Positions 1,241-15,124 of a stretch of 15,124 nt of DNA are shown here, piece by piece. Positions within the stretch are counted from its first letter, which is position 1; every line of letters begins with the position of its first letter. Below the pieces are notes generated by a model, which saw only the letters and a program-made list of their open reading frames with translations, searched no databases and was not told where the DNA came from. Source of the stretch: a virus (lineage: Duplodnaviria; Heunggongvirae; Uroviricota; Caudoviricetes); IMG/VR virus record IMGVR_UViG_2728369181_000009, one strand, 5' to 3'. The translations under genes and the position numbers were made by a program.

Positions 1241-1285
1241 GGATGGTTCAAAATTGCTTCAATTTTGAACCATCCCAGTTTTCAT
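1241..1285 (+). terminator. Rho-independent terminator of the transporter gene
   Basis: Perfect 15 bp inverted repeat GGATGGTTCAAAATT / AATTTTGAACCATCC (1241-1255, 1261-1275) with a 5 nt loop, followed by CAGTTTTCAT, 11 bp after the stop codon. Confidence 0.6.
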
Positions 1286-1544
1286 AATGTTCATTTGTTA
1301 TTATTCCGCCCTATCACTTCTCTCGTAATATTATATAATTATCAGCTAGTTAAACACACAAAGAGTTCTGAACATCTTAAATAAGACTATTTAAGATACA
1401 TGACGATTGCATTGCGTAAACGCTTTTTATTTACAAAAAATGGGGAAGTATTACGGCGATTGCGAAAAGTCTGAAGCGCTTGAATTAAGATAATATAGAA
1501 AATCAGATACAACAAAAATGGCAGGTAGATGATGTGAAGATAAA

Positions 1545-1563
1545 TTGGAGCGGCGAAGGGAAT
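1545..1563. repeat. Island-distal attachment-site direct repeat (partial copy of tRNA-Gly 3' end)
   Basis: TTGGAGCGGCGAAGGGAAT matches TTGGAGCGGGCGAAGGGAAT at 14216..14235 (3' end of glyU) with a single-base deletion in the G run. Confidence 0.75.
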
Positions 1564-1620
1564 AACACAACAAGCCACAAGACCAGTAATAAAGGCACAT
1601 TCGCGAGTTCTAAAATAGAT

Positions 1621-1644
1621 TCTATACACATTTCTATACACATT
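1621..1644. repeat. Tandem 12 bp direct repeat TCTATACACATT x2; motif recurs near the integrase end
   Basis: Two exact adjacent copies at 1621-1632 and 1633-1644. CTATACACAT recurs inverted at 14051-14060 (overlapping the int start codon) and CTATACAC direct at 14094-14101. Confidence 0.6.
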
Positions 1645-1674
1645 TATCACTCGCTTGGGAATTACACATCCCCT

Positions 1675-1735
1675 GTTATCCGTGATCAAGCTGGTGGATG
1701 ATCACGGATAACCGATATGGGAATCCCCATATCGG
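1675..1735. promoter_or_regulatory. Two adjacent perfect palindromes (14 bp arms with 10 bp spacer; 10 bp arms with 4 bp spacer); probable protein-binding or recombination-accessory sites
   Basis: GTTATCCGTGATCA (1675-1688) pairs with TGATCACGGATAAC (1699-1712). CCGATATGGG (1712-1721) pairs with CCCATATCGG (1726-1735). Confidence 0.45.
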
Positions 1736-1808
1736 CATCGCGTAGTTAATCGTAGTGGCTACCGTAGTAGTTGAGTAGCAGGATGTAACCTGCCAGGAAG
1801 GAAATGAT

Positions 1809-1844
1809 CGTGACTCGCCGTGACATGGCGTGATTAATCGTGAC
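1809..1844. repeat. Phased array of four CGTGA(C/T) direct repeats at exact 10 bp spacing
   Basis: CGTGAC at 1809, CGTGAC at 1819, CGTGAT at 1829, CGTGAC at 1839. The same hexamer forms the inner part of the palindrome arms at 1675-1712. Helical phasing suggests cooperative binding of a protein (Int arm sites, Xis/AlpA sites or a packaging-site array). Confidence 0.5.
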
Positions 1845-1885
1845 ACCAAACAAAAAGCCTTACCCGTAGACTTAATGTAAGGCTT
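1845..1885 (-). terminator. Rho-independent terminator for minus-strand transcription
   Basis: On the minus strand, a 9 bp stem AAGCCTTAC / GTAAGGCTT (1855-1863, 1877-1885) with a 13 nt loop is followed by TTTTTGTTTG. An alternative pairing GTAAGGC (1877-1883) with GCCTTAC (1893-1899) is also possible. Confidence 0.45.
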
Positions 1886-2640
1886 GGCTGTAGCCTTACC
1901 GAACGCTCCGCTCACCGTCGCAGCCTGTCCGGTTTCCGCCACTGATACGGCCTCACATCATCATGCTGGTGGCGTTCCTGTTGCAGCACAACGGAAACAG
2001 GCGCTGAACATCCGTTAAGTTTGCTTGCTGGTTACCGGGTTGAAATGGGTTAGTAGGGGGAGCGGTACGCATTCCACGTATCGGTTTCGTATCCGGTGGA
2101 TGTTCTGCGTACTTTTTTGCACAAGACCAGTAATGGCGGGCTTTCCGCTGGTATGCACTTTTCTTTTTGCGTACCACTTTTGCGCACTTTTTCAAGGTCG
2201 GCTCACAGATTCCCACCATTATGGGATCAGTTAAAGGGGCCGAACAAATCAATAGCTGTGGTGGTATCGTTTTGCATGTCAGGTTTTGACAGGTTTTTAT
2301 GGACTCCGAAAACTCACTGCACCAGATGTGCAATACATCGCGCTCATTTCGTTAACGTCGCGCGCGCGTACTTGTCGCAAAATGTCGCAAAATTTCGTCA
2401 TCGGACCAGAAATAAACCTTACTTCCCCGATGGGGTAATCTGTTACCGACGGTTTAACCGTCTGTGCCAGCAAAACGAAAGAATTTGCGGTTGACTTTAA
2501 GTCAGTCACAACACCCCATCTCACAGGCCGTGCCTTTCTAACTTTTTGCAATGCAATAAGTCAGGTAACGCTATGCGTTCCACCGTGTACACCGCGCCAG
2601 TAAAACCCCCAGATTCGTGGTTTTCCTGAATATCAGGAAT

Positions 2641-2931
2641 CTACCGCCGTAACCGTTCCGGCTTCTTCCACCGGTAAGTATTTTTCGCGCTCTCCCTCCG
2701 TTGTTGAGAACGGCGACGGCATGACAGCAATTCAAGAACCCTGATTCGTATGTCGCACATATCAGTGTCATTAAGCTGGATACCATCACGGCGCATCACC
2801 TCAGCCACCACACGCGCGTAATTTTCGGCGGTGACGGTATCCGGCTGCGTGGCCTCCTGTGTGCCTGTAGCCTGGCTGATTCCGGTAATACTGCGAATTA
2901 TCCCGAGTACTTCGGCTTCGGTCATTATCAT
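2641..2931 (-). CDS. Hypothetical protein, 96 aa, basic C-terminus; last gene of the metallopeptidase operon
   Basis: ORF with ATG at 2931, 35 bp downstream of the peptidase stop, with a weak RBS. The N-terminal two-thirds look protein-like; the Arg-rich tail is less certain. No recognisable motif. Confidence 0.35.
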   Translation of the reverse strand: MIMTEAEVLGIIRSITGISQATGTQEATQPDTVTAENYARVVAEVMRRDGIQLNDTDMCDIRIRVLELLSCRRRSQQRRESAKNTYRWKKPERLRR

Positions 2932-2966
2932 GGCCTAATAAATCGTCGAATGAGTTTGGCCGGGAG

Positions 2967-3638
2967 TTATTCCACCAGCAAAAATGGCGTAGCCCGGTCA
3001 ATGACGTTGATGCCGATTAGCGAGCTAACATTGCGACCATTAATAATGCTATCCCGTTCAAGCAAATGCGCTATTTTTTTCACTTCATACCAATATTGAG
3101 CCATGAGGGCTTTAGTCTTTTCAACAAGTTTAGAAAGCATTAACTCCCTGTTAGTTCGCTTATCTGTGGCGCAGATTAAATCGAGCATGTCATTTACGTT
3201 AGCCATGTCATAGCGATGAGGTAGTGAATACTTTTTGTTGAAAATATCGTTGTTTTCGTAAAGGGCTTCGCTTACTGGTCCGGCGAGGGATACAAAAGCG
3301 GCCTTTATTGCATCGCGCTTTATACCATCCGCGTAGTAACGTATGAAAGGGATAACTTTACCATCCCGCCCAACTACACCAGATTTACTATCCCGCAAAC
3401 GCCCGAGATCGTGGCTGTGAATTATGCTGTGTTTAACAACGCCCAAACACTTGGCCTCATGTACATGTTCGCCAGCAACGTAACCGTATTCATCCATAAC
3501 GGCGATAACCTGTACATCTAAGCGAATAAGCCATGCAGCTACTGCATGGCCCGCTTCGTGGAATGCTACACATCGTTTACCATCGCCTATCCAGTTATAG
3601 AACATTTCCTGCTCATATATCTGGTGAATGGCGCCCAT
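2967..3638 (-). CDS. Standalone zinc metallopeptidase, 223 aa, HEAGH motif (FtsH/M41-like or ImmA/IrrE-like), no ATPase domain
   Basis: Sequence FHEAGHAVAAWLIRLDVQVIAVMDEYG at residues 26-52 contains the HExxH zinc-binding motif in the HEAGHA form typical of FtsH-type protease domains. GAGGG RBS 8 nt upstream. Start ATG overlaps the upstream stop (TAATG). Family assignment is by motif recognition only. Confidence 0.55.
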   Translation of the reverse strand: MGAIHQIYEQEMFYNWIGDGKRCVAFHEAGHAVAAWLIRLDVQVIAVMDEYGYVAGEHVHEAKCLGVVKHSIIHSHDLGRLRDSKSGVVGRDGKVIPFIRYYADGIKRDAIKAAFVSLAGPVSEALYENNDIFNKKYSLPHRYDMANVNDMLDLICATDKRTNRELMLSKLVEKTKALMAQYWYEVKKIAHLLERDSIINGRNVSSLIGINVIDRATPFLLVE

Positions 3639-3814
3639 TACGCGCCCTCGCTTGCCAGTGAGGCCAGAGCCTTAGCCATGAGGCCGCGGGCAATCTGGTG
3701 AACGGTGGGAGCGACGCCGAGATTGGAGCGCTGGCGTTCACGTTCCTGAATGTTGCGTATGGCCTGCATCTGCTCGGCGGACAGCAGGACCGGCTTAACG
3801 TTTGGCTTTCTCAT
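3638..3814 (-). CDS. Small hypothetical protein, about 58 aa, possibly DNA-binding
   Basis: The six-frame ORF 3638..3907 overlaps the upstream gene by 113 bp. An internal ATG at 3814 (MRKPNVKPVLL...) has a GGAG RBS and lies 16 nt after the upstream TAA, so it is the likely start. Its stop overlaps the peptidase start. Confidence 0.4.
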   Translation of the reverse strand: MRKPNVKPVLLSAEQMQAIRNIQERERQRSNLGVAPTVHQIARGLMAKALASLASEGA

Positions 3815-3989
3815 TCTGTTCACTCCAGAACCGTGCATTTGATTCGTTGAGTTGCTGCAGGTTGCGACTCTGGCGATCGAAGTTATTGCGTGCCTTTGCC
3901 GCTTCAAGATCCTGACGGGTCAGCATCGGGCGGTGGGCGCGCTGTGGGTTGCCTGCGGCTAATTTCGGATCATAGATAGGCATGCTCAT
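3795..3989 (-). CDS. Small hypothetical protein, 64 aa
   Basis: ORF begins 6 nt after the stop of the 183 aa gene; hydrophilic, basic/Gln-rich. No recognisable motif. Confidence 0.4.
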   Translation of the reverse strand: MSMPIYDPKLAAGNPQRAHRPMLTRQDLEAAKARNNFDRQSRNLQQLNESNARFWSEQNEKAKR

Positions 3990-3995
3990 ATCTCT

Positions 3996-4547
3996 TTAGT
4001 GTTTTTTGCCCCAGAAGGTGGCGTTGTCAGCATTGATGCTGCGGATTGCGTCTCCTGTAGAAATTATTTTCGGAGCGATATTGTTTGCTTTCATGTAGTC
4101 GCCAACCTGCTCGAGTATATCGATAGCCTGATCCAGATGGATTTCTGACATTGGGTTAGGGTGTACGGCGCTGAACGCCTCAGCAGGGGCGTAGCGCAGC
4201 ACATCGAGCGCAACGATGCGCGGGTCGGCGTCGGGCAGTGCTGAATCGTATTTCGGCGCTACGGCACGTACCAGACGCATGAACTCAGCATTCATTGCTG
4301 TCGGTGCCGTGGAAGTAGCAGACGTGCCATTCAAACCGCGGGAAATCATATCGCTGTCGCGGGTGTACATGCGACGCAGGCGGTCGCCGGTGGCGATGCG
4401 CATTTTGCGTTCTTTCTCGAGTGTCGTTGCAAGACTTGCAATGATGGTCGCAACGGTTCCGCTGCACTGGAACTCCTCTTTACTGCCGTCGGCATACGTC
4501 ACCACGCCATCTTCGCCAGTCACTGCGATGTTTGTAATATCTTTCAT
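3996..4547 (-). CDS. Hypothetical protein, 183 aa; first gene of the five-gene operon
   Basis: ATG at 4547 with GAGG about 10 nt upstream. Preceded by an AT-rich promoter region and followed by four tightly linked genes. No family recognised; not obviously similar to P4 Sid, Delta or Psu as I recall them. Confidence 0.5.
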   Translation of the reverse strand: MKDITNIAVTGEDGVVTYADGSKEEFQCSGTVATIIASLATTLEKERKMRIATGDRLRRMYTRDSDMISRGLNGTSATSTAPTAMNAEFMRLVRAVAPKYDSALPDADPRIVALDVLRYAPAEAFSAVHPNPMSEIHLDQAIDILEQVGDYMKANNIAPKIISTGDAIRSINADNATFWGKKH

Positions 4548-4660
4548 CGGTCAGACCTCAGTATGTTCTATCGGATATTTATGTTTCATTAAACGCAATA
4601 ATGATATTTATTGTTGCAATTATTGCAATGTGTTTTTCTTGTGATAACATGCAAATTGAG
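4548..4660 (-). promoter_or_regulatory. AT-rich promoter/operator region of the five-gene operon, with perfect palindrome TTGCAAT-T-ATTGCAA
   Basis: 15 bp palindrome at 4614-4628 inside an AT-rich stretch, located between the tandem terminators (4705-4768) and the first operon gene. Flanked by inverted GACCTCA / TGAGGTC at 4554-4560 and 4658-4664. Confidence 0.45.
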
Positions 4661-4704
4661 GTCAGAACTCAATGAGTTGGTTCCAAACATGGTTACCGGT
4701 ACAC

Positions 4705-4736
4705 AAAAGCCCGTGCGTCTCCAGCGCGGGCTTTTT
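4705..4736. terminator. Bidirectional intrinsic terminator
   Basis: Stem AGCCCG / CGGGCT (4708-4713, 4727-4732) with extra inner pairs, flanked by AAAA on the left and TTTTT on the right. Confidence 0.45.
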
Positions 4737-4744
4737 ACTGGCAC

Positions 4745-4768
4745 AAAAAAGCCGGGAAAAATCCCGGC
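4745..4768 (-). terminator. Rho-independent terminator ending the replication-module transcript
   Basis: On the minus strand: GCCGGG, a 6 nt loop ATTTTT, CCCGGC, then TTTTTT. Lies 6 bp after the stop of the 95 aa gene. Confidence 0.6.
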
Positions 4769-4773
4769 CTCCG

Positions 4774-5061
4774 TCACTGACTGCAATTTTTCGATCCAGG
4801 GTATTTCCTGAATGCCTTACCATTGGGCTGATGTAATCCCATCCCGGCATGTGCCCGGCTGATGGTTTTGCGCATCTCCCCGAAATTATCCTGCCTTGCT
4901 GGTGGGCGTGCTGCCTTGTGGATACATTCCGCGCGACGTTTTGCCGCCTGCTCCCGTGCCTTGTCATCATTCGCCAGCATGATGACCTCAGCCCACCGCG
5001 CCGCCGCTCTCCGGTACAGACCACGCGCTTCCAGAGCTTCCGCTTTGCTGTCGTGAATCAT
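4774..5061 (-). CDS. Small helical protein, 95 aa, ANR-like (AraC-negative-regulator family) signature
   Basis: Start ATG overlaps the FinO-like stop (ATGA). N-terminal KAEALEARGLYRRAAARWAEV matches my recollection of the ANR family motif (Y..AA..W). Assignment is tentative. Confidence 0.45.
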   Translation of the reverse strand: MIHDSKAEALEARGLYRRAAARWAEVIMLANDDKAREQAAKRRAECIHKAARPPARQDNFGEMRKTISRAHAGMGLHQPNGKAFRKYPGSKNCSQ

Positions 5062-5600
5062 GCGCCTGTTTTCTCCTTTGCTGCCCGACGCTGACGTTTG
5101 CGTTTCTCATTCAGCGCAACCAGCCGCGTTTCTGCGTCCTGTTGTTCCTGTGGTGTCACCTCGCCGCACGGCTGGCATTTCAGGTCGTAGCGTACCCCAC
5201 CAGCCATTAAGGCGCGGTAATAGCGCGGACACTGCGCATAAGATGCCAGCGTCGCACGCAATGCCCCTGGCCCGAATGCCAGCCCCCTGACGGCGAGATC
5301 CTGCATCAGGTCGTCGAATATCCCCACCTTAAGCGGCTTCGGTGCTTCCCGGCTGAATAATTCAGGCCACAACTCAGTGAGGCGGTTAACGCGTCTGCGG
5401 TTTTTTCGCTGCCGTTTGGTCATATGCCGCCACGGTGTTGCCCCTGTGGGCTTCTGCTGCGCTTTCTGGTTACCGGGCATCACTTTATGCGCCGATGTGG
5501 TTTTATCCTGCTGCTGCGCCGCCTGCGTCGTTTTCTGCGGCGTGCCGTAAATACCTTTTGGTTTTCTGTTAATGGTCAGCTTAGTCATGCTTTGCCCCAT
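5058..5600 (-). CDS. FinO/ProQ-domain RNA-binding protein, about 176-180 aa
   Basis: Basic disordered N-terminus (KRQRKNRRRVNRL) followed by LTELWPELFS...PKPLKVGIFDDLMQDLAVRG...LRATLASYAQCPRYYRALMAGGVRYDLKCQPCGEV, which closely parallels the FinO core and the ProQ N-terminal domain (PLKIGIFQDL...RYDLDGNPCGE). An internal ATG at 5588 with a GGGG SD is the likelier start. Confidence 0.7.
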   Translation of the reverse strand: MGQSMTKLTINRKPKGIYGTPQKTTQAAQQQDKTTSAHKVMPGNQKAQQKPTGATPWRHMTKRQRKNRRRVNRLTELWPELFSREAPKPLKVGIFDDLMQDLAVRGLAFGPGALRATLASYAQCPRYYRALMAGGVRYDLKCQPCGEVTPQEQQDAETRLVALNEKRKRQRRAAKEKTGA

Positions 5601-5606
5601 CGTTAC

Positions 5607-5944
5607 AACTGTCTACCAACTGTCTACCGATATAATTGATTGATTTATTTAATGTTATTAACACATAACAAAAAAACAATCTGCAAACTGTCTACCAACG
5701 GTCTACCGCATTAATACATTGATAATTAATGATTTTTACTAAATGGTAGACAGTGTAGACAGTTAAAAGAGAAATTTAAAAAATGCCCCCTTAACTATCT
5801 GTTTTTTATATACCCCCCGTGGTGTAGGAATATAGAAATAACTGTCTACCTCTCTACCACATTGAAAATATCTTTATAATTCAAAATATTAATTGGTAGA
5901 TGGTTGGTAGAGGGTTAAGTGAATCTGTCTACCAACCGTCTACC
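5607..5944. repeat. Replication origin with iterons: at least 10 copies of (A/C)(A/C)C(T/G)GTCTACC in both orientations, separated by AT-rich spacers
   Basis: AACTGTCTACC at 5607, 5618, 5686 and 5840; AACGGTCTACC at 5697; AACCGTCTACC at 5934; CTGTCTACC at 5925; inverted GGTAGACAG / TGTAGACAG at 5745-5762; GGTAGATGG / GGTAGAGGG at 5895-5912. Directly 3' of the primase gene. Confidence 0.7.
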
Positions 5945-5971
5945 TTTACGTTTCAGCTTATAAATTTCGTA

Positions 5972-7777
5972 TTATGTTCTGTCGTTAATCCCTGTAGCTG
6001 CTGGCAACCAGCCATCAGCATCATCATCTAACAGAACATTTGTTATCACTCGCCCTTTATCCGGGCCTTTAGTGCATTTAGCCCGCTTATACTCCTTTCC
6101 GTATTCCGCCATAGCTCCTGGCATATCAGTACCAAAGCGTGTCAGTGATACTGGTTTTCCCAGGCCATGCGCTGACATATAGGCTAAATAAGCATGATAC
6201 AGGTATCGCCTCGGGCTAAATGGCACTATTTCCGCATTGCCCACCATCATTCCTTCACATTTAACCAACGACATCAGATAGCCGCAAAAGTCCACCAGTG
6301 AATCACCTTCGCGCTTTATCAACAGCGCTTCTTCTGATTTTTGCTGCTCATAAAGTAGTCTTTTAGCTTCGTCCTGGTCGGTAAATCGTGTTAGCAAATG
6401 GCGAATCACTACCGCCAGTTCGCCTTCTATCTTTTCCGCCAGCATGGGATCGCGTTCGTTCTCCGGTACGACCTCAGAGAAATTAAATATCACCCTACGA
6501 CGCGAGATCCCCCCGCTTCGGTCACTGAATGACATGGCGTTATTGTTTACCGCAAGCACTACTGCCGGAATACGTGTGGAGTAGGGGGCTTTATGTTTCG
6601 GATCAATTGCCACCTTGTCGCCGCCAGTAATTGCCTTAATTCCTGCACCATCGCCAGCGTAGCGAGTCATATCCGGCATGATAATCAGCGAAAAGCCAAC
6701 TACTAACGCGCGTTCCCTTGCGTCTTCCAGAGCCTTCATGCTTGCCGATACTGTGTTGGCCTTACCCGCCAGCATGGTACAAATCTCAGCCATCACACTT
6801 TTACCGCTTCCGCCTGGGCCTGTTACCTCAAGGAATAACTGCCAGTCGTACCGGTTCGCCAGTACCATGAATAATGCCGCCAGTACGCGATCAGCTTTAC
6901 GCTCATTATCTGCCACCGAACGACGCAGCCACTTCCAGAAATTCGGCGCATGTGTTGCCAGCGTTTCCCCCTCTGCTGGTGGGCTGAACGGTAATTCACT
7001 GGCATTTAACAACCAGTCATTTTTGTTATGCTCCCGAAAATTTCCCGTCCGGGTATCAAATACCCCGTTACTGAATCCAATAAGATTCCTGTCTGCCCCG
7101 CCCATAACAGGCAGGCTCAATTTCATTGTGTCTACGGCAAATTTAATGGCGTTTTGCGAATAACTGATTCCAGCATCAATAAAAATCTTCGCCATAGACC
7201 GCTGGAGTTCCTTATCAGATACAGGCACCCAGACAATTCCGTTGTAATGGTGAACTACATCAGAATCATCATTTATAGCCAGTGCTCTTCCATAATATTC
7301 AAGTAACACTTCCCCTCTCTGGCTGGCTCCCATCTGATTTAGTGCTGGCCTGGATAGGTCAATATTTTTTGTGGCTAATTTCATCGCTGAAACTTCCCCA
7401 CTCTCTGCCTGTTCGCGGATCCGTTGCAGGTAGTCGCGCCAGTTTTCCGGCTCCCGGTCGGTGATACCTTTGTATAATTTCGCGTCCTGTACACCAGCCA
7501 GCGCCAGCTTTTCAGCAATAGCATTGATCTGGATTGGCTCTATCTCCCCCGCGAGATAGACACGCGCAAAGCGACGTTCATCGTCGACAATGCGGATATT
7601 CGCCAGGTCTGCCAGTTGCTTTGGCCCCAGGTAAACAGGAGGCACGTTATCGCCGTGTTTTCGTCCTTCGCTTTCAATCCAGTGTTGAGCATGGGCGTAA
7701 GCATCCGTCCCGGCAAAAATGATTACCTCGGTGAATTTATCCTTCGGCTGATATTTTAAATTCGGTGCGTTTTTCAC
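5972..7777 (-). CDS. Replication primase/helicase, 601 aa (P4 alpha-like; P4-family primase C-terminal NTPase domain)
   Basis: Walker A motif VTGPGGSGKS in the C-terminal half, an N-terminal primase-like region, size and position upstream of the iterons. Start overlaps the upstream gene stop (ATGA). Confidence 0.8.
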   Translation of the reverse strand: MKNAPNLKYQPKDKFTEVIIFAGTDAYAHAQHWIESEGRKHGDNVPPVYLGPKQLADLANIRIVDDERRFARVYLAGEIEPIQINAIAEKLALAGVQDAKLYKGITDREPENWRDYLQRIREQAESGEVSAMKLATKNIDLSRPALNQMGASQRGEVLLEYYGRALAINDDSDVVHHYNGIVWVPVSDKELQRSMAKIFIDAGISYSQNAIKFAVDTMKLSLPVMGGADRNLIGFSNGVFDTRTGNFREHNKNDWLLNASELPFSPPAEGETLATHAPNFWKWLRRSVADNERKADRVLAALFMVLANRYDWQLFLEVTGPGGSGKSVMAEICTMLAGKANTVSASMKALEDARERALVVGFSLIIMPDMTRYAGDGAGIKAITGGDKVAIDPKHKAPYSTRIPAVVLAVNNNAMSFSDRSGGISRRRVIFNFSEVVPENERDPMLAEKIEGELAVVIRHLLTRFTDQDEAKRLLYEQQKSEEALLIKREGDSLVDFCGYLMSLVKCEGMMVGNAEIVPFSPRRYLYHAYLAYMSAHGLGKPVSLTRFGTDMPGAMAEYGKEYKRAKCTKGPDKGRVITNVLLDDDADGWLPAATGINDRT

Positions 7778-8064
7778 TTCTTACCTCCCGCAACCAACAT
7801 TGCCCGGATTTTTTTAATATTCGTGGCTGCACGTCTCGCCACTGCCTGTTGTTTGTTTTCCACCAGAATAAAATCACGCTCAAACTGACGGCGCGGCATT
7901 ACGCAGTCATATTCGTAAGCCTCACGGCGGTAGGTGATATTGCCTGGCGTAACGTGACGAATAACCACCCGTCCCCCGCGTCTGGTGTCCCGGAAAATAT
8001 CACCGGGGCGGATTTCAGGCCGAGAGAGGCCGCTGGCAGTAAAGCCAGAATTTTTCTTTTTCAT
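7774..8064 (-). CDS. Hypothetical small protein, 96 aa
   Basis: ORF translationally coupled to the primase gene; basic and protein-like. No family recognised. Confidence 0.45.
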   Translation of the reverse strand: MKKKNSGFTASGLSRPEIRPGDIFRDTRRGGRVVIRHVTPGNITYRREAYEYDCVMPRRQFERDFILVENKQQAVARRAATNIKKIRAMLVAGGKK

Positions 8065-8068
8065 GGTT

Positions 8069-8269
8069 TTATTTTCCTGTCAGCAGTTCCGGTTTTATTT
8101 CCGCACGAATACAAAGTTCAGAAAAAAATTCAGGAGAACCAACAATCTCATTACTTTTCAGTCGGCATTGTGATTTCACTTTCCCTTTATCCAGGTAAAC
8201 CAGCACGCGTCCGGTGAAATCATCTGGCACATTAAGCACTACGGGTACATGCGCTTCATGATTATGCAT
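8069..8269 (-). CDS. Hypothetical small protein, 66 aa
   Basis: ATG with GGAGG RBS; start overlaps the upstream stop (ATGCATAA). Confidence 0.45.
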   Translation of the reverse strand: MHNHEAHVPVVLNVPDDFTGRVLVYLDKGKVKSQCRLKSNEIVGSPEFFSELCIRAEIKPELLTGK

Positions 8270-8495
8270 GGCTTACATCCTCCAGAGATTTTCTTCTGTA
8301 ACGCGTCTCTGCCACATATTCAGCATAGTCCGACGCAATACTAAGAATCATTTCACCCTCTGACTTGTAGCCACTGGTATTGATAAGAAAATATGCAGCT
8401 TTCATCATGTCAGCAATGCTCAACAATGCGCCCGATGTATCTTCCGGTGCGCCATCAAACTCCTGTTTCAGGGAATTAAAACGATCATCACGCAT
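8262..8495 (-). CDS. Hypothetical small protein, 77 aa
   Basis: 8 bp start/stop overlaps with both neighbours; protein-like composition. Confidence 0.45.
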   Translation of the reverse strand: MRDDRFNSLKQEFDGAPEDTSGALLSIADMMKAAYFLINTSGYKSEGEMILSIASDYAEYVAETRYRRKSLEDVSHA

Positions 8496-8871
8496 GTTTA
8501 CCCCCCTGAATGACCTGATAACCGCAACTGGTCAGCAATTCGATAAATTCCGGCAGTGTGCCGAAACAGCAATCATCACGCAGACGTTCGCAGGATACTT
8601 CAACGCCGTTTTCGTAGTGACTCACCATACACCCGGTAAAATGCAGATCATCATCGTGATGGCACGTTGACGGCTTAATCAGTCGCGCACGTTCCGCCAG
8701 CTCCAGCAATGCTTCAACGCTTCCGGCAATTGCACCATCCGGCAGGTGATAATTACTTACCACGCGTCCATTCTCCACGTTGACCAGTAGCTGCCCGGAA
8801 AATATCTCGTCAAACTGAATGCTGTTAAGGTCAGAAATTGACAGGTTATGCATGGTGCACCTCCTGTACAT
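8488..8871 (-). CDS. Hypothetical protein, 121-127 aa
   Basis: ORF in the coupled operon; alternative start at 8853 (MHNLSISD...). No family recognised. Confidence 0.45.
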   Translation of the reverse strand: MYRRCTMHNLSISDLNSIQFDEIFSGQLLVNVENGRVVSNYHLPDGAIAGSVEALLELAERARLIKPSTCHHDDDLHFTGCMVSHYENGVEVSCERLRDDCCFGTLPEFIELLTSCGYQVIQGGKHA

Positions 8872-9070
8872 CAGCCATGATAATTTTTCCGGCCTTATCC
8901 AGTGCCTGATCGGCTTTCAGCTGCACAAATGCTAAATAATGGGAGATGCATTCTGATTCTCTGGCTGCGTGTTTATGCGCCACACCAGCGATAGCAGAAA
9001 TCTCAATAAGTGAATCCATCAGCGTTTTGATAGCGTCTACCGCTGCATCAGGCCATGTTGCATTACACAT
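8846..9070 (-). CDS. Hypothetical small protein, 74 aa
   Basis: ORF in the coupled operon, overlapping its upstream neighbour by 8 bp. Confidence 0.4.
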   Translation of the reverse strand: MCNATWPDAAVDAIKTLMDSLIEISAIAGVAHKHAARESECISHYLAFVQLKADQALDKAGKIIMADVQEVHHA

Positions 9071-9428
9071 GCTCCACCTCCTGGCGAATACGGGCAGCGA
9101 ATACCATCACGCAGCCATCAGGAGATTGCTGGCGTGCTTCCTGTTCGCTGGTGGCCTCGATGTGAATCACGCGCGGTTGTGCCGTACTCAGGGCGATAAA
9201 ACGCCAGATAAAATTGTTTTCGCATTTCTGAATAAACAGCGTGTTTTCTTCGCGCCCTTTCCATGTTGCCGAGATATAGCCCATGTCATTGAGCATCTCG
9301 CAGGCATCAACCAGCGTATCGGCGGCTACGTGTACAGTGTTTTTACCGTCAGCAATGCAATCACGGTGCACCGCCAGGAAGGTGTATATAAATTTAGGGT
9401 GAGTTTGGGTATGCTGTGTTCCAGCCAT
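9063..9428 (-). CDS. Hypothetical protein, 121 aa; first gene of the leftward early operon
   Basis: Internal ATG at 9428 (MAGTQHTQTHPKF...) with GAGG RBS 7 nt upstream. This is the protein-like C-terminal segment of the artefactual 528 aa ORF and sits directly downstream of the palindromic operator. Confidence 0.5.
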   Translation of the reverse strand: MAGTQHTQTHPKFIYTFLAVHRDCIADGKNTVHVAADTLVDACEMLNDMGYISATWKGREENTLFIQKCENNFIWRFIALSTAQPRVIHIEATSEQEARQQSPDGCVMVFAARIRQEVEHV

Positions 9429-9494
9429 AATCGTTACCTCGTTTAACGGTTTGGTTAGACGCCCTGCATGTGTGCCACCACTGCGGGGCGTTGC

Positions 9495-9527
9495 TGTATA
9501 TACACCACAACAATTGGTGTATATACA
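9495..9527. promoter_or_regulatory. Perfect 13 bp inverted repeat operator (TGTATATACACCA, 7 bp spacer, TGGTGTATATACA) in the divergent control region
   Basis: Read directly from the sequence. Related half-sites ACACC-TTTT-GGTGT (9570-9583) and palindrome GTGTACAC (9587-9594) follow. Lies between the divergent starts at 9428 (-) and 9619 (+). Confidence 0.6.
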
Positions 9528-9618
9528 AATTAAATTTAAGTGTGCTACAGTGTCAAGTGTTTTATCAACACACCTTTTGGTGTAATGTGTACACACCTCA
9601 AAATAACCGGACATTCTG

Positions 9619-9924
9619 ATGGCAACAGGAAACATCAACAGCAGATCGCAAATGAAAAATATCCGCTTCCCCCATGATGTAATCGAGGAAATGGAAAATT
9701 CGAAAACGGAAGGGGAAACAATAGCCGCTTTCGTGATTACAGCCGTTCGCGGTGAAATCGCCCGCCGCCAGGCAGAAGGAAGCGGAGAAAATCCCCTGGT
9801 TTCTTCGCTCGATGCCCTAGCGCAGGTGGAAAAAATCGGAGTCAAAGCTGCCGAGGAAATCGGGCAACTCGTCACCGTCGCGCGTGAAGAACTCCAGCGG
9901 CGCAAAGCTAAAGAGCAGGAATAA
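9619..9924 (+). CDS. Ribbon-helix-helix (Arc/Mnt/CopG-like) DNA-binding protein, 90-101 aa; candidate island repressor
   Basis: From the second ATG (9652): MKNIRFPHDVIEEMENSKTEGETIAAFVITAVRGEI fits the RHH pattern (beta strand, helix A, G-x-T turn, helix B), followed by a charged helical tail. One of only two plus-strand genes in the island, divergent from the early operon. No strong SD at either start. Confidence 0.55.
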   Translation: MATGNINSRSQMKNIRFPHDVIEEMENSKTEGETIAAFVITAVRGEIARRQAEGSGENPLVSSLDALAQVEKIGVKAAEEIGQLVTVAREELQRRKAKEQE

Positions 9925-9933
9925 CCACTATAG

Positions 9934-10182
9934 GTGCCGTGGTGTGAGGAACTACGGTGCATTATTTTACAGGGCAGCGCCATGACCAACAAAGAATCAA
10001 CCAATACACCATCACCGGCACGGAAAAAACAGCGCAGAAAGATAGCGTACGAGCATGAGTCAGACAGATTCGCGCCCTGTGCGTTTGTCCTTGAGAAATT
10101 CCTTAAAGAGTACAGGTGCACAAAAATGGGGTCGCATACCTGGAAAACATCGCGGCATGGCAATGTTAAAGAGCAGGAATAG
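9934..10182 (+). CDS. Small basic protein, 66-82 aa, co-oriented with the RHH gene
   Basis: ORF with GTG at 9934 or ATG at 9982; ends in KEQE-stop on the same 15 bp sequence as the RHH gene. Coding status is moderate. Confidence 0.35.
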   Translation: MPWCEELRCIILQGSAMTNKESTNTPSPARKKQRRKIAYEHESDRFAPCAFVLEKFLKEYRCTKMGSHTWKTSRHGNVKEQE

Positions 10183-10649
10183 CCCACCAGCAAGCCAGCA
10201 TATTCACCATAATGACCCTCAGTTAAACATAGAGTCATTGGTGCAAAGCTGACACATTGCCCACCAGCCGCAAATCTGGCATTGTTGGCGATGCGTTCAA
10301 GTATGTAGCTTTCCCACTGGCGGCCCTCTGCGGTCGCCTTTGTTTTATCCAGAACGAAATCAGACATCAGATTGATCAGCACCTGGCGACCTGACAAAAT
10401 CGCATCAGTCGCGCCACCAGCAAAATTTTTTGCTTTCCGGACAGTGTGACCAACGACATTTTGCAGCAAAATATTCTGCATTTCTGGCGTGCTGTAGTAA
10501 CGGTGATCAGCGCCTTCACTCTGTGCGACCACAACGCTATAATCTGCCTCGTAGACAGTAAGCAATATGGCGCAGTAGGCTATTCGTTCACAAAGGCGCT
10601 CCGGCAACGGGGCGCTTTCTCTTTTTGTAACGGTCAGAGCGTTACACAT
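10183..10649 (-). CDS. Hypothetical protein (about 150 aa protein-like segment) with no in-frame stop before running antisense into the RHH module
   Basis: ATG at 10649 overlaps the AntA-like stop by 8 bp and the first ~150 codons look protein-like. The frame then stays open through the antisense of 9619..10182 (Cys/Ser/Arg-rich junk) to 9063. The 3' end is undefined; a disrupted gene or artefact is possible. Confidence 0.3.
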
Positions 10650-11442
10650 GGCTGTTTTCCTCCATGCGACGGGCTAACCAACGTTGCGAAAGACGAATTA
10701 ATTCAGCTTTCCGCTGGTGGTAGTCCTGGCCTAACTCAATCAGCGTGATATTGCTCTGCTCAAGGTAAGAAAGGTGCTCAAGCTGCAACGTGCTCATGTG
10801 GTCGCGTGGTTCGCCTGTGATGCCGTTCGCCTGCGCCCACTGTTTTGCAGTCATGCCACCCAGCACGATACGCGCCAGCATATTGGCTTCCGTGGTGTAG
10901 TGGTGCTGTAGAGTGTTTTTACCCAGTTCAGCCCGGTACGCCTCCAGCGCGGCGCACATCGGCTTAAAGTAGCTGGCAACGGTGATACGGGCTTTCAGTT
11001 CCCGGCGTAACGCTGCGGAACGCACTGGCGCTACCTTGTGTAGCTCCTCCTCGCATTTGATGAAGTACTGGCGAACGGCGCGGCCCTGTTCGGTGCGTTC
11101 GACCATCGCCAGTTCTTTCGCCATGTTCACGGTAATGATGTACTCAAGAGCTGTTTGCTGGCGAGATTTTGCGCTCACCGGATCGGGTCGGCTCAAATAT
11201 TCAACAACCTCATAATCCACGCTTTCCGTGAAGCCGTATTCTTCAATGCGCCCCTTGATCCACGAACGGAAAACGCGCCCTACACCTAACGCCTTATGCA
11301 ACGCTCTGGCGCTAACAATATTGGTTTCACGCCTGCCAATAACGCCAGAAATAACCGGGATAATTTCGCCGAAATTTTGTTGGCTCTGGTTTTCAGGCCG
11401 AACGAAGCCCTGCCCCTGTACGGGCGTTTTTCGCAGTTTCAT
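10642..11442 (-). CDS. AntA-domain phage antirepressor-like protein, 266 aa
   Basis: Segment ISARALHKALGVGRVFRSWIKGRIEEYGFTESVDYEVV matches the AntA/AntB N-terminal domain signature. AGGAG RBS 6 nt upstream of the ATG. Confidence 0.6.
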   Translation of the reverse strand: MKLRKTPVQGQGFVRPENQSQQNFGEIIPVISGVIGRRETNIVSARALHKALGVGRVFRSWIKGRIEEYGFTESVDYEVVEYLSRPDPVSAKSRQQTALEYIITVNMAKELAMVERTEQGRAVRQYFIKCEEELHKVAPVRSAALRRELKARITVASYFKPMCAALEAYRAELGKNTLQHHYTTEANMLARIVLGGMTAKQWAQANGITGEPRDHMSTLQLEHLSYLEQSNITLIELGQDYHQRKAELIRLSQRWLARRMEENSHV

Positions 11443-11519
11443 AAAAACTCCTGCTATCGAATTAAGTTACTTTTATTTGCTGGTGGATAGCTGGTGGCAA
11501 TAGCCCCGTAGCCATTTAA

Positions 11520-11717
11520 TCAGGTAGCTGTTCCGCGTGATTCCGCAATACGCTGATTAATCCACTCGTCAATTTCACTCTCAACGAAAGCAATAGCTCG
11601 CGAGCCAATTTTAACTGATGCAGGAAATTTACCTTGCCCCATAAGGCGATAAATCCATGCCTTGCTATATCCAGTTCTACGCTGAACTTCTGTTAAACGA
11701 ATAAGCGTATTTGACAT
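11520..11717 (-). CDS. alpA: AlpA-family transcriptional regulator / excisionase-like, 65 aa
   Basis: IRLTEVQRRTGYSKAWIYRLMGQGKFPASVKIGSRAIAFVESEIDEWINQR has the AlpA/MerR-type HTH pattern of CP4-57 AlpA. GAGGT RBS. Placed downstream of a P4-type int gene. Confidence 0.85.
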   Translation of the reverse strand: MSNTLIRLTEVQRRTGYSKAWIYRLMGQGKFPASVKIGSRAIAFVESEIDEWINQRIAESRGTAT

Positions 11718-11786
11718 ATATTTACCTCATAACGTCTACTCAATTTGACGAGGTAATCCTGGCACAGAAATAACGAATATTTTCAT

Positions 11787-11896
11787 ACCCTCAGGCCTAA
11801 TGGTTACCGGAAGGAAATTAACCCTAAGGGTGATGGTAAAATTGACGGGGAAGATAAAAAAATACCCTCAGGGTAACAGTAAATCACCCTCAGGGT
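11787..11896. promoter_or_regulatory. Four copies of near-palindromic ACCCT(C/A)AGG(G/C)(T/C) in the alpA upstream region
   Basis: ACCCTCAGGCC at 11787-11797, ACCCTAAGGGT at 11821-11831, ACCCTCAGGGT at 11864-11874 and 11886-11896, each followed by a GGTA-containing tail. All lie between the stop of the 265 aa gene and alpA. Confidence 0.55.
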
Positions 11897-11911
11897 ATGC
11901 GGTATGGTGCG

Positions 11912-12709
11912 TTAATCCGGCTTTGCGTTCTTTTGGCTGTTGTCTCGGTTAATAGGGCAGGCAGTCCTCTCTATGAGCGTTGCAAGTGCATTACTTGCCC
12001 CCCACTGCTTAAGCTCCCTGGTTATCGCTTCTTGATTTCCCCTGGTGGCAAAATCATTTTCTGGATCGTAATTGGCCCACTCTCTGTTTCTAATCTCAAT
12101 AGCCTTAGCTAATGGGTCTTTATCCCAGTATTTATATAAGTGTATCGGGCGCTCTTGCTCTAACTGCTCTATCCTTGCCCTTAACTCTGCGTTTTCTTTT
12201 TCCAGCATTGCGATTTGGGATAATAAATCATCCTCTGTACGCAACTCTTTCTTTTCAATATCGCGTCCTTGTGCCTCGTCATTTTCAGAAGAGTTAGCGC
12301 CTTCCAGCTTCGTTAACGCGTCAAGGACATCGGGAAAAATTGCGAAAATTTCACCCCTTATAAATCCAATGTTCTCAAATTCGGGATCTTCCCAATAACC
12401 GGACACCAGAAAACCATTTTCATCCCTCTCACCAGGTAAACAACCACGTTTCCGAACCGCATTCAGATTTCTATAAAGAACATCATAATCAAATTCATCC
12501 CGATACGGGTTACAAAAAGATTCCAACAGCTTAAATTCATTTACTGTGTACAGGCGGATATGTTCTCCGCTTATTCTCCTGAGTATCCAAGTTATGACAT
12601 CTGAAACATCATAATCATCACCAGCGACCTTAAGCACGACCTCAAGAAATTCACGTAAAGAAATAAAATCTTTTTTGTATTCGTTTAATTCGGCATGAAT
12701 ATCAATCAT
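11912..12709 (-). CDS. Hypothetical acidic protein with central coiled coil, about 265 aa; accessory gene between int and alpA
   Basis: ATG at 12709 with GAGGTG RBS 6 nt upstream (the track ORF starts two codons earlier at GTG 12715). Asp/Glu-rich, with a heptad-like segment LLSQIAMLEKENAELRARIEQLEQER. No catalytic motif seen. Confidence 0.55.
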   Translation of the reverse strand: MIDIHAELNEYKKDFISLREFLEVVLKVAGDDYDVSDVITWILRRISGEHIRLYTVNEFKLLESFCNPYRDEFDYDVLYRNLNAVRKRGCLPGERDENGFLVSGYWEDPEFENIGFIRGEIFAIFPDVLDALTKLEGANSSENDEAQGRDIEKKELRTEDDLLSQIAMLEKENAELRARIEQLEQERPIHLYKYWDKDPLAKAIEIRNREWANYDPENDFATRGNQEAITRELKQWGASNALATLIERTACPINRDNSQKNAKPD

Positions 12710-12837
12710 ACGCACACCTCAGCGTCCTCTACTGTAGTGGCTGTACCAGTCCGTCGAGGTGTACGGATTTTCGGGAGCGACCCTAGACACAGACTTTTCT
12801 TTCGTCGCTCAAAGTCTACTACTGTATACGCAACCAG

Positions 12838-14052
12838 TCATCCACATTTTCCGAACTTGCCATGCACCACGTTACCGCCATGTTCGAGCGAATCCATATA
12901 GTCGGCGTACCACTGTAGCATCTCGCGCCGCCCGTCCAGATATTGCGCATGGTTGTACGTGCCACGAATTGAGTTTTTATCGACGTGCGCGAGCTGCGTT
13001 TCTATCCACGCAGTGTTATAGCCCTGCTCATGCAAAATGGTGCTCATGGTGTGCCGGAATCCATGACCAGTAACGCGCCCGGCATAGCCGATACGACGAA
13101 TGAGCACATTCATCGCCATTTCACTCATTGGCTTACTGTGGCGAATACGACCGGGGAAAATAAACTGATACTGGCCTGTCATGTTTTTTAACTGCTCCAG
13201 TATTTTTATTGCCTGTTCTGGTAATGGCACGCAATGCGGACGGCGCATCTTCATTCGTTCTTTAGGCACTTCCCACAAACGATTATCAAAATCGATCTCC
13301 CGCCATTCTGCCTGCCGTAATTCCCCGGGTCTGACACCTGTCAGAATTAATAACCGCATTGCCAGTTTGACGATCTGGCTTCCGGTGTACGTATTAAAAA
13401 CGCGAAAAAATTCCGGCAGTTCGTCGGCCTTCAAATAGGCGTAATGCTCTTTTTTATGTGGAGCAAATGCGCTCACCAGGTCAGGGGCTGGATTATATTC
13501 AGCGCGTCCGGTGATGATTGCGTACCGGAACACCTCGCCGCATCGCTGGCGAACCTTACGCAATTTTTCAGTCGCACCACGGTCGTTAAGACGGGAAAGA
13601 ACCGCCAGCAATTCCATCGGCTTAATTTCTGCGATCGGCCTTGCGCCAATGTACGGAAAAACGTCTTTTTCAAACGTCTCGATCATTTCCTCGGCGTATG
13701 ACGATGACCACCTGTCGATCCGCTTTTCGTACCATTCGCGAGCGATACCCTCAAAAGTATTGCCAAATTTGCTCGCCTGTTCTCGCTTTTGGGCTTTTCT
13801 GGCCTCACTTGGATTTATACCACCAATAAGAAGCCTTTTAGCCTCATCCCTTGCAGCCCTGGCATCAGACAGAGACACATCAGGGTACACGCCCAACGAC
13901 AACATTTTGGGCTTTCCTGCAAACCTGTAGCGCAGTCGCCACCCTTTCGAACCGTTCGGCTCAATGAGCAACGAAAGCCCGTTACCGTCATTGAGCGTAT
14001 AAGCCTTTTCTTTCGGCTTCGCACGCCTGATAGCAAGGTCTGAAAGCAGCAT
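12838..14052 (-). CDS. int: P4-family tyrosine integrase, about 404 aa
   Basis: N-terminal LNDGNGLSLLIEPNGSKGWRLRYRF arm-binding-type domain; C-terminal catalytic residues (R in VRPGELRQ, HGFRHT, Y in GTYNHAQY). Adjacent to the tRNA 3' end. The ATG at 14052 (MLLSDLA...) is preferred over the upstream in-frame ATG at 14091. Confidence 0.9.
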   Translation of the reverse strand: MLLSDLAIRRAKPKEKAYTLNDGNGLSLLIEPNGSKGWRLRYRFAGKPKMLSLGVYPDVSLSDARAARDEAKRLLIGGINPSEARKAQKREQASKFGNTFEGIAREWYEKRIDRWSSSYAEEMIETFEKDVFPYIGARPIAEIKPMELLAVLSRLNDRGATEKLRKVRQRCGEVFRYAIITGRAEYNPAPDLVSAFAPHKKEHYAYLKADELPEFFRVFNTYTGSQIVKLAMRLLILTGVRPGELRQAEWREIDFDNRLWEVPKERMKMRRPHCVPLPEQAIKILEQLKNMTGQYQFIFPGRIRHSKPMSEMAMNVLIRRIGYAGRVTGHGFRHTMSTILHEQGYNTAWIETQLAHVDKNSIRGTYNHAQYLDGRREMLQWYADYMDSLEHGGNVVHGKFGKCG

Positions 14053-14127
14053 GTGTATAGCTCCAAAAAATAAATTTTGTCCTATACGCATTACTATACA
14101 CTTCTGTGTGTAGATTCTGGTAGTTGT

Positions 14128-14202
14128 GAGTAGACGTTAATAAACTATGAAAATGGCTGGAAGGCTTGATATTCGTGGGTTTGATGGACTTTAGTAGACG
14201 TT
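14128..14202. promoter_or_regulatory. int promoter / attachment-arm region with two direct copies of AGTAGACGTT
   Basis: GAGTAGACGTT at 14128-14138 and TAGTAGACGTT at 14192-14202. A third copy of AGTAGACGTT lies in inverted orientation at 11731-11740, in the alpA leader. Confidence 0.45.
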
Positions 14203-14216
14203 GAGAAATGTTTGTT

Positions 14217-14290
14217 TGGAGCGGGCGAAGGGAATCGAACCCTCGTATAGAGCTTGGGAAGCTCTCGTTCTACCATTGAACTACGCCCGC
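14217..14290 (-). tRNA. glyU: tRNA-Gly (anticodon CCC)
   Basis: Reverse complement reads GCGGGCGTAGTTCAATGGTAGAACGAGAGCTTCCCAAGCTCTATACGAGGGTTCGATTCCCTTCGCCCGCTCCA, 74 nt, with cloverleaf, CCC anticodon in loop CTTCCCAAG, and encoded CCA. Confidence 0.95.
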
Positions 14291-14307
14291 TTCGAGATGC
14301 GTAAGGC

Positions 14308-14337
14308 ATTATAAACCTTACGCTCTCCTTAGCAAGT
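14308..14337 (-). promoter_or_regulatory. Candidate sigma70 promoter of glyU
   Basis: On the minus strand: TTGCTA, about 17 bp spacer, TATAAT ending roughly 17 nt upstream of the mature tRNA 5' end. Confidence 0.4.
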
Positions 14338-14368
14338 ACCACGCTGCTGACTGCTGATTAATTCGCCA

Positions 14369-15124
14369 TCAGCATTTTGGCTTGCTGCCCTGAGGCGGCA
14401 AGTAACGTAGCGGATCAATTGCCGTTGCACGGTAACGAATCTGGAAATGCAGGCGAACAGATGCCGCATCAGTGCTCCCCATAGTGGCGATTTTTTGCCC
14501 AGCTTTCACGCTTTGCCCATTATTTACCAGCATCGTGTCATTATGAGCGTAAGCCGTAATGTAATCTTCACTGTGTTTAATCATGATGAGATTACCGTAG
14601 CCACGCAGCTGGTTGCCCACATACACCACCTTTCCTGCACCCGCGGCGTAAATAGGTGTACCCCGTGGAGCTGAGATATCAATCCCTTTATTGCCGCCAT
14701 CTGCTGTCGAATACGGCATGATAACTTTCCCTGTCGTTGGCCATAACCAACAACGTTGCCCTACTGGCGGCCAGGAAGATTTCGGTACCGCTGATGACGG
14801 TGTAACCGATGCGGTTTTGGTCGTTGATTTGGCGGTTGATTTACGTGTACTACTGCTACTTTTCGCCCCACCCAGTTTTAGTTTCTGACCTACTTCAATG
14901 GTGTAAGGGGGGGAAATGCCGTTCAGTCGCGCCAGTTCTTTTACGCTGGTTCCCGTGGTGCGCGAAATACGATATAGCGTATCCCCCCGTTTCACGGTGT
15001 AAACGGAGCCGGAATACGTTCCTGTATCGGATGATTTGCTACCCGAACAGCCCGCCAAAAGCAGCCCAACCGATAACAACATCACGATACCCAGAGATTT
15101 TTTATTCAGGCGTCCCGCACTCAA
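14369..15124 (-). CDS. ygeR: LysM-domain / M23 (LytM) peptidase-domain outer-membrane lipoprotein, 251 aa
   Basis: Lipobox LLLAGCSG, LysM segment YTVKRGDTLYRISRTTGTSVKELARLNGI, Ser/Thr-rich linker, C-terminal M23-like domain. First codon TTG lies at the window edge. Symbol from my recollection of E. coli YgeR. Confidence 0.8.
   Translation of the reverse strand: MSAGRLNKKSLGIVMLLSVGLLLAGCSGSKSSDTGTYSGSVYTVKRGDTLYRISRTTGTSVKELARLNGISPPYTIEVGQKLKLGGAKSSSSTRKSTAKSTTKTASVTPSSAVPKSSWPPVGQRCWLWPTTGKVIMPYSTADGGNKGIDISAPRGTPIYAAGAGKVVYVGNQLRGYGNLIMIKHSEDYITAYAHNDTMLVNNGQSVKAGQKIATMGSTDAASVRLHFQIRYRATAIDPLRYLPPQGSKPKC

Follow-up and report, generated by a model that had tools for sequence, protein, structure and literature searches.

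The glyU element and its insertion site

The DNA stretch analysed here (15,124 nt, below called the window; IMG/VR virus record IMGVR_UViG_2728369181_000009) contains an element inserted at the 3' end of glyU, the tRNA-Gly(CCC) gene. It is located between yqeG (1-1230, plus strand) in the left flank and actS/ygeR (14369-15124, minus strand) in the right flank, and 18 of its 20 genes are on the minus strand, directed away from glyU. The element encodes a tyrosine integrase (int), the regulator AlpA and a P4 alpha family primase-helicase, followed by a predicted iteron origin. Its synteny and homology with the E. coli island EcCICFT073 make a Gram-negative phage-inducible chromosomal island (PICI) of the EcCI type its likely identity.

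One tRNA gene was detected in the window (14217-14290, minus strand; ARAGORN, and the Rfam tRNA model with 71.6 bits). The proximal attachment (att) core, TTGGAGCGGGCGAAGGGAAT (14216-14235, plus strand), consists of the final 19 nt of this tRNA and one further base; it has the attB sequence and lies inside the intact glyU gene. The distal core, TTGGAGCGGCGAAGGGAAT (1545-1563, plus strand), is a displaced copy of the glyU 3' end matching 19 of 20 positions, the sole difference being the deletion of one G, with no substitution. A fuzzy search (up to 3 errors) detected these two copies only. The length bracketed by the repeat, which is also that of the expected excised circle, is 12,672 bp.

A synthetic empty site, made by fusing window positions 945-1544 to 14216-14815, was searched against 5426 complete E. 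coli genomes. Many E. coli chromosomes align to all 1200 nt of it without a break (100% identity), and 1205 genomes have a single place that covers 80% or more of it. An unoccupied yqeG/glyU-actS allele is therefore on record, and homology breaks off precisely at the repeat, the distal core included, because the empty-site match is unbroken at 100%. The duplicated core with the same flanks (gaagataaa-core-aaYacaacaagc) was also detected in independent glyU-occupied genomes: CP148427 (20/20), EC02 (19/20) and 2014C-3338 (18/20). The original prediction had described a 19/20 direct repeat of the glyU 3' end around an element of about 12.7 kb and had proposed a search for an empty yqeG-glyU-ygeR site in Escherichia; the repeat was confirmed, the empty site was found, and the repeat it named is the homology breakpoint.

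The ETT2 (E. coli type III secretion system 2) remnant yqeH to ygeQ separates yqeG from glyU in E. coli K-12 (PMC2808357), and in CP148427 (strain Z1323CEC0013) the same element has ETT2 (type III secretion genes and ygeQ) on one side and glyU on the other. In the window yqeG directly adjoins the element and ETT2 is absent, as the prediction had correctly stated. At the ETT2-less junction (about 1397-1404) the DNA 3' of yqeG meets the ygeQ-glyU spacer with a short overlap, and this junction is 100% identical in many empty-site E. coli genomes. A perfect 16-nt inverted repeat (1241-1275), just past the yqeG stop codon, is probably the yqeG terminator and lies outside the element. The two PICI catalogues searched do not mention glyU as a PICI site, and the literature search for glyU with satellites or PICIs returned ETT2 papers only.

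The integrase gene (12838-14052, minus strand) is intact, reads into the element and encodes the Arm-DNA-bind_3, Phage_int_M and Phage_integrase domains. Its open frame extends to 14091, and the start was set by RefSeq homologues of 1215 nt. The motif CTATACAC occurs 4 times in the window (0.26 expected), every time within about 160 nt of the att cores: at 1622-1629 and 1634-1641 in the integrase-specific attP arm (1564-1848), and at 14053-14060 (minus strand) and 14094-14101 in the integrase-proximal attP arm (14053-14215). These repeats are likely candidates for Int arm-type sites, and the segment 1564-1848 is missing from relatives with other integrases. Within the likely PICI-lineage explanation, we attribute the insertion into the glyU 3' end to the element's own tyrosine integrase. 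The int-alpA RNA motif (Rfam RF02996; 12726-12793, minus strand; 40.3 bits against the gathering score of 35.8, E-value 1.7e-5) is located between the int stop codon and the gene of a 267-amino-acid (aa) protein.

AlpA, the master activator and excision factor of Gram-negative PICIs, is encoded at 11520-11717 (minus strand; Pfam Phage_AlpA, E-value 2.4e-19). Four ACCCTGAGGGT-type palindromes are located upstream of alpA (11787-11896; 8 strand-wise matches against 1.76 expected), suggesting candidate operators, potentially binding sites of AlpA or of a helper activator. Two of the four then run into T-runs. The int-alpA accessory slot is occupied by the gene of the 267-aa coiled-coil protein (11912-12715, minus strand), which belongs to a narrow, unannotated family of E. 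coli, Salmonella and Citrobacter and had no match in Pfam, PHROG, PADLOC or NCBIfam; EC02 has a different gene in this place. Downstream of alpA, the gene at 10642-11442 (minus strand) encodes an AntA/AntB (Bro-network) anti-repressor-like protein (Pfam AntA, E-value 7.8e-23; PHROG anti-repressor families).

The replication module includes the primase-helicase of 601 aa (5972-7777, minus strand; Pfam D5_N, DUF5906 and Pox_D5); Pfam detected neither a zinc-ribbon nor a Toprim primase domain in it. Full-length identity to the vB_KppS-Ant primase is 73%, identity to P4 alpha is 49% (residues 141-592), and the protein scored 95.8 bits with TIGR01613 ('primase, P4 family'), under the cut-off of 108.7. 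Given this similarity to P4 alpha, the helicase and origin-binding part can fairly be called "P4-type". Immediately past the 3' end of the primase gene, about 12 CTGTCTACC-type iterons, pointing both ways, surround AT-rich DNA (5607-5960; GC 0.36; repeat families D1, D3, I3, I8, I9 and I19). Ten of the 13 CTGTCTACC matches in the window fall within 5609-5944, against 1.64 expected for the whole window; we consider 5607-5960 as the predicted replication origin. The int, alpA, P4-type primase and iteron origin named in the original prediction are thus all present, according to Pfam, NCBIfam and the repeat counts.

A DUF4222 protein (7774-8064, minus strand; Pfam E-value 1.3e-19) is encoded 5' of the primase gene, in the same place as in EcCICFT073, next to four small open reading frames (ORFs) of 66, 77, 127 and 74 aa (8069-9070, minus strand; phrog_340, phrog_2512, phrog_24341 and phrog_5146), two of which match EcCICFT073 at 35-53% identity. 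On the other side of the origin are the genes for a ProQ/FinO-family RNA-binding protein (5058-5600, minus strand; Pfam ProQ, E-value 2.9e-22) and a PerC-family transcriptional activator (4774-5061, minus strand; Pfam PerC, E-value 1.4e-32).

The only reversed genes encode a YlcI/YnfO-like protein of 101 aa (9619-9924, plus strand; Pfam and PHROG scans and comparison with strain E189) and a 66-aa phrog_21027 protein (9982-10182, plus strand; PHROG scan and the E189 comparison). The pair (9619-10182) is also present in EcCICFT073 and is thus a conserved, uncharacterised PICI module, possibly with a role in regulation or as a toxin-antitoxin pair. Next to it, a gene similar to that of the host cell-division inhibitor Icd (9063-9428, minus strand) was detected by NF033153 (E-value 9.7e-23, C-terminal 48 aa), with limits taken from the E189 annotation. 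A 528-aa ORF (9063-10649, minus strand) was rejected as an artefact: only its last 48 or so residues are Icd-like, and the real plus-strand genes lie within it. Where the Icd-like gene and the plus-strand pair diverge, the intergenic DNA has a 13-bp perfect palindrome, TGTATATACACCA...TGGTGTATATACA (9495-9527), a candidate operator.

Relationship to known PICIs

PICIs are described as unidirectionally organised islands of 12-15 kb that combine an integrase, a regulator and a replication module, have their iteron origin on the 3' side of pri and lack structural and lysis genes (PMC6092414). The glyU element is of this size, has co-oriented int, alpA and pri with int directed inward, and has its iteron origin in the same position. 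When all plausible ORFs were scanned with Pfam, PHROG and NCBIfam, neither structural nor lysis genes were detected. Gram-negative PICIs are further organised into the Integration, Bro, Replication and Late zones, and inward int paired with alpA distinguishes them from prophages (PMC10111431); the four zones are found here in the same order, as int/alpA, AntA/Icd, DUF4222/primase/origin, and PerC with cargo.

The closest architecture among characterised islands is that of EcCICFT073, an experimentally mobilised Gram-negative PICI (Fillol-Salom 2018, 2019). Eleven window proteins match EcCICFT073 in conserved order at 35-74% identity, including the primase (43%, full length), DUF4222 protein (51%), Icd-like protein (74%), PerC (52%), the 82-aa ORF (69%), the 77-aa ORF (53%), AlpA (37%) and the last ORF (67%). 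The common order is int, alpA, the reversed YlcI/YnfO pair, Icd-like gene, small ORFs, DUF4222, primase and iteron origin, after which EcCICFT073 has a single-stranded DNA-binding protein (SSB), PerC, late genes and a final ORF of the 93-96-aa type. The two elements are also alike in size class, inward int and unidirectional operon. They differ in the insertion site, which for EcCICFT073 is between roxA and phoQ, and in the integrase (26% identical). EcCICFT073 has capsid (c1499) and decoration (c1500) homologues, and its packaging uses RppA and two lambda-type cosN sites; the glyU element has none of these. Its SSB gene stands where the glyU element has ProQ/FinO, and it lacks the 267-aa protein as well as two cargo proteins discussed below, a 183-aa protein and an HExxH protein.

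EcCIMP1 of E. coli MP1, with the helper Kapi1, shares int, AlpA (81%), AntA (59%), the Icd-like protein and PerC with the glyU element (PMC11773190). EcCIMP1 is mobilised even though, like the glyU element, it carries no recognised gene for terminase or capsid (PMC11773190). It differs in its length (20 kb), its thrW site, a TOPRIM/DUF927 primase, P22-like ejection-protein genes and a second alpA. The element vB_KppS-Ant (LR881103; 16.5 kb), which resembles capsid-forming PICIs and was deposited as an induced prophage, shares the primase together with the int and regulator module. It encodes capsid, portal, connectors, small terminase (TerS) and large terminase (TerL), whereas none of the capsid-forming PICI genes (capsid, protease, portal, connectors, TerS, TerL) was detected in the window in the Pfam and PHROG scans.

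Exchangeable modules and the cargo slot

Strain E189 has the same body of genes at thrW, next to proA, with an integrase 66% identical to that of the glyU element. From the 267-aa protein to PerC, 12 of the 15 shared proteins are 100% identical between E189 and the window, and AntA, PerC and the 82-aa ORF are 95-99% identical. The near-identical body at a second att site implies recent movement. DNA homology with relatives that have other integrases extends from 13095, inside the int 3' end, to 1916-1919 (E189 type) or 1849 (several IMG/VR relatives). Since homology ends inside the int 3' end and near the distal end, the N-terminal two-thirds of int and both attP arms form one exchangeable module. 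Together, these comparisons resolve the element into three exchangeable parts: the integrase/attP module, the conserved regulation and replication body, and a cargo slot.

The glyU-type integrase segment was found in 79 of the 5426 complete E. coli genomes, and the four of them with inspected loci all have satellite-like elements at glyU. Isolates from chickens, pigs and humans in several countries share the same late-zone type. The int, alpA and primase genes are intact in the window, and int is frameshifted in the nearest relative.

The cargo slot was delimited by comparison of 80 IMG/VR loci with this primase family, 15 of which retain both PerC and a conserved 185-nt end segment (1849-2033, minus strand), with 1.4-4.6 kb of differing DNA between them. 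The end segment is 90-96% identical in these 15 relatives, which differ in integrase and cargo, and has a hairpin followed by a T-run at about 1856-1890 on the gene strand, a terminator-like arrangement. Both anchors being kept around differing DNA, window positions 2034-4742 (the PerC side starting from 4743) are an exchangeable cargo slot, not core machinery. At least 80% of the window's version of this slot is covered in only three complete genomes.

The sister elements (E189 at thrW and the IMG/VR relatives) are 94-100% identical to the window from PerC to the int 3' end and have the 185-nt end segment in common; they have other integrase/att modules. Their cargo includes a TerS-like helix-turn-helix (HTH) protein of 175-181 aa, DUF2213 homologues and a 380-aa lipoprotein, and they lack the 183-aa protein, the HExxH protein and a terS relic, all three of which are in the window. 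The HTH protein is encoded at the end of the late zone, and its best PHROG match is the small terminase. Neither the HTH protein nor the DUF2213 homologues were found in the window.

The 183-aa protein (3996-4547, minus strand) has 40 homologues, all of them in Enterobacterales, and had no match in Pfam, PHROG, PADLOC or the Protein Data Bank (PDB). Its AlphaFold2 model (predicted local distance difference test, pLDDT, 65.7) was uninformative, and Foldseek against PDB returned nothing below an E-value of 0.25. A homologue is located directly after the primase and origin in four Klebsiella loci, and some of these elements are embedded in prophage late regions. The neighbouring small ORFs, a pair that overlap each other (58/89 aa and 64 aa; 3638-3989, minus strand), are annotated as genes in CP148427 and EC02.

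The 223-aa stand-alone HExxH protein (2967-3638, minus strand), FtsH/M41-like and treated here as cargo, had no PADLOC match. Pfam Peptidase_M41 covers only its HEAGH region, below the cut-off, and for the AlphaFold2 model (mean pLDDT 64.6) the top 15 Foldseek PDB matches were all FtsH protease domains, at weak E-values of 0.1-1. Homologues of the 183-aa (46%) and HExxH (47%) proteins are adjacent in Klebsiella CP084818 (locus L011, 9001-10456), in a satellite-like element surrounded by the head and tail genes of a prophage. The adjacency in Klebsiella suggests that the two proteins may work together. The last ORF encodes a 96-aa phrog_1561 protein (2641-2931, minus strand; PHROG E-value 8e-47), the counterpart of the last EcCICFT073 ORF (locus L008, 18374-18652).

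The distal 1.1 kb or so of the element is an ORF-poor mosaic of short fragments. A scrap of an ash-family gene (2294-2364, 86-90% identity) indicates past gene decay or recombination there. The relic of a terS gene (2022-2190, minus strand) is about 170 nt long, frameshifted, and recovered by tblastn in three different frames; it covers only TerS residues of about 52-113. The relic has 84% nucleotide identity to terS of E. coli lambdoid prophages, where the gene is beside a PBSX-family TerL in a module that also has the DUF1073 portal, DUF2213 and DUF2184, and 77-81% identity to Klebsiella phages GZ7 and Mulock. RefSeq annotates its CP148427 counterpart as a frameshifted partial pseudogene. 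The relic stems from the part of terS that is rich in GTACGCAAA repeats; 3 of the 10 GTACGCAAA matches in the window fall within 84 nt, which is suggestive only. It could be a captured gene that has since decayed, or else a pac mimic that was kept.

Packaging, alternative explanations and significance

The original prediction described an element without recognisable terminase, capsid, sid, delta or psu genes. This holds for genes, since none was detected in the scans of all plausible ORFs, but the terS fragment at 2022-2190 escaped it. Other searches and comparisons weigh against the PICI assignment. No helper cos or pac site, Rpp or TerS, the packaging determinants expected of a PICI, was recognised. 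The lambda/phi80 cosN sequence GGGCGGCGACCT had no match within 2 mismatches in the window, and the same search recovered both experimentally defined cos sites of EcCICFT073; the lambda-type cos mechanism was rejected on this result. The 19-nt P2/P4 cos had no match within 3 mismatches, RppA had no tblastn match in the window, the 183-aa protein had no sequence match in the PDB, which includes RppC, and the frameshifted fragment is the only trace of TerS in place of an intact gene. The element may be packaging-defective because the TerS-like HTH protein of the sister elements is missing.

The SatelliteFinder model of PICIs expects at least 4 of the 5 components int, alpA/stl, pri-rep, capsid morphogenesis and terS, and by the published definition the glyU element has 3, which makes it 'Type C', the class set aside as uncertain by the authors of that tool (PMC10085698). 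The attP junction of the in-silico circle (...GAAATGTTTG-TTGGAGCGGGCGAAGGGAAT-AACACAACAAGCC...) had no exact match in IMG/VR and Joint Genome Institute (JGI) metagenome contigs. The 5426 complete E. coli genomes do not include the exact mosaic of the window element, and whole-element megablast against deposited phage records gave no match. The 15-kb window itself shows no helper phage.

The life cycle of the element as a PICI, that is, induction, excision, replication, packaging, helper identity and helper dependence, we infer from homology with EcCICFT073 and EcCIMP1. The island would be silent until a helper prophage or an infecting phage enters lytic growth, when a helper factor would switch alpA on. 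AlpA would activate its own promoter, potentially through the candidate operators, and the long minus-strand operon, and Int with AlpA would excise the circle. The P4 alpha family helicase-primase would then fire the iteron origin, and the resulting multimers would be packaged into helper capsids. Given that no capsid, Rpp or TerS protein and no lambda-type cosN were found, packaging would have to use a cis site and the unmodified helper terminase, or would be inefficient or lost; the packaging competence of this variant is doubtful.

The TerS, PBSX-type TerL, DUF1073 portal, DUF2213 and DUF2184 capsid set is presumably a headful (pac) packaging module, and the DUF2213 homologues of the sister elements belong to the same phage head module as the prophages related to the terS relic. 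The relic and the DUF2213 cargo of the sister elements are the best pointer to the helpers of the lineage, which may be lambdoid phages of that type. EC02 has a closely related glyU element together with a prophage with full terS; co-occurrence of the relic and full-terS prophages was found in at most 5 two-copy genomes against about 1 expected, too few to conclude. A specific form of this proposal, which we hold to be improbable, is that PICIs of this late-zone type hijack pac-type lambdoid phages purely in cis and encode neither a packaging nor a capsid protein: the relic beside the 185-nt segment would be a non-coding pac-site mimic for the unmodified helper terminase, and the 183-aa and HExxH pair, found again in Klebsiella, would be a new module of interference or helper manipulation. 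Phage pac or cos sequences have precedent in Gram-positive PICIs (PMC6092414).

The missing packaging genes also fit a PICI-derived island that is no longer packageable, a stranded or domesticated remnant kept by its cargo (PerC, ProQ/FinO, HExxH and the 267-aa protein), which would spread mainly vertically or by generalised or lateral transduction and recombination. The lack of cos, Rpp, capsid gene and TerS, with terS reduced to a relic, the loss of the HTH protein, the patchwork of fragments in the distal 1.1 kb, the frameshifted int of the nearest relative and the attP junction not found in viromes or metagenomes are all consistent with such a remnant. However, int, alpA, primase, iteron origin and both att cores are intact, the same late-zone type occurs in isolates from several hosts and countries, the body shared with E189 implies recent movement, and EcCIMP1 demonstrates mobilisation without a recognised packaging gene of its own. 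We regard the remnant as unlikely. In addition to a PICI, the original prediction had allowed for a P4-like satellite, here one exploiting P2-type helpers, and its satellite reading was borne out in the PICI-like form. With satellite phage P4 the element shares the helicase and origin-binding region, the P4-type int/alpA arrangement, an Icd homologue and integration into a tRNA 3' end. The P4-like reading is effectively refuted on content, as no sid, delta, psu or epsilon homologue was present in any scanned ORF, the P2/P4 cos is missing, the N-terminal zinc-ribbon/Toprim primase domain of alpha is absent, and the gene order follows EcCICFT073, not P4. The Rfam search for P4-type immunity RNA (E-value up to 0.1) likewise gave the tRNA and the int-alpA motif only, with no C4/CI and no isrK.

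Hardly more credit can be given to a defective lambdoid or P4-type cryptic prophage, or to an integrative mobilisable or defence island moved by conjugation. Genes for structural, lysis, repressor/Cro, relaxase and coupling proteins were not detected in the Pfam and PHROG scans, although the RefSeq-style annotation (anti-repressor, Icd, terS scrap) is prophage-like and ProQ/FinO proteins are typical of conjugative plasmids. The inward int paired with alpA is the arrangement that separates PICIs from prophages (PMC10111431). PADLOC detected no defence system among the ten proteins submitted; its weak matches were the PDC-S22 candidate-system model, on the C-terminal part of AntA, and Cas5f on the YlcI-like protein, likely noise. 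A Gram-negative PICI remains the likely identity of the element, on the architecture and homology described above.

The interest of this PICI-family island is modest and comes from its glyU site, its three-module architecture and a late zone without a recognisable hijacking gene; the genes for hijacking phage packaging were either lost or never present. The current picture of satellites is unchanged, and the value of the element is in annotation and as a possible test case for cis-only packaging. Lacking the capsid and terS markers, such elements do not reach the threshold of current satellite finders and are therefore probably under-counted.

Taken together, glyU joins the tRNA sites used by E. 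coli PICIs, and the element is a clean example of the satellite build from three exchangeable parts. Regulation of virulence genes by the PerC-family regulator of EcCIMP1 has been shown, and the PerC and ProQ/FinO genes of the glyU element could influence the regulation of virulence genes in the host.

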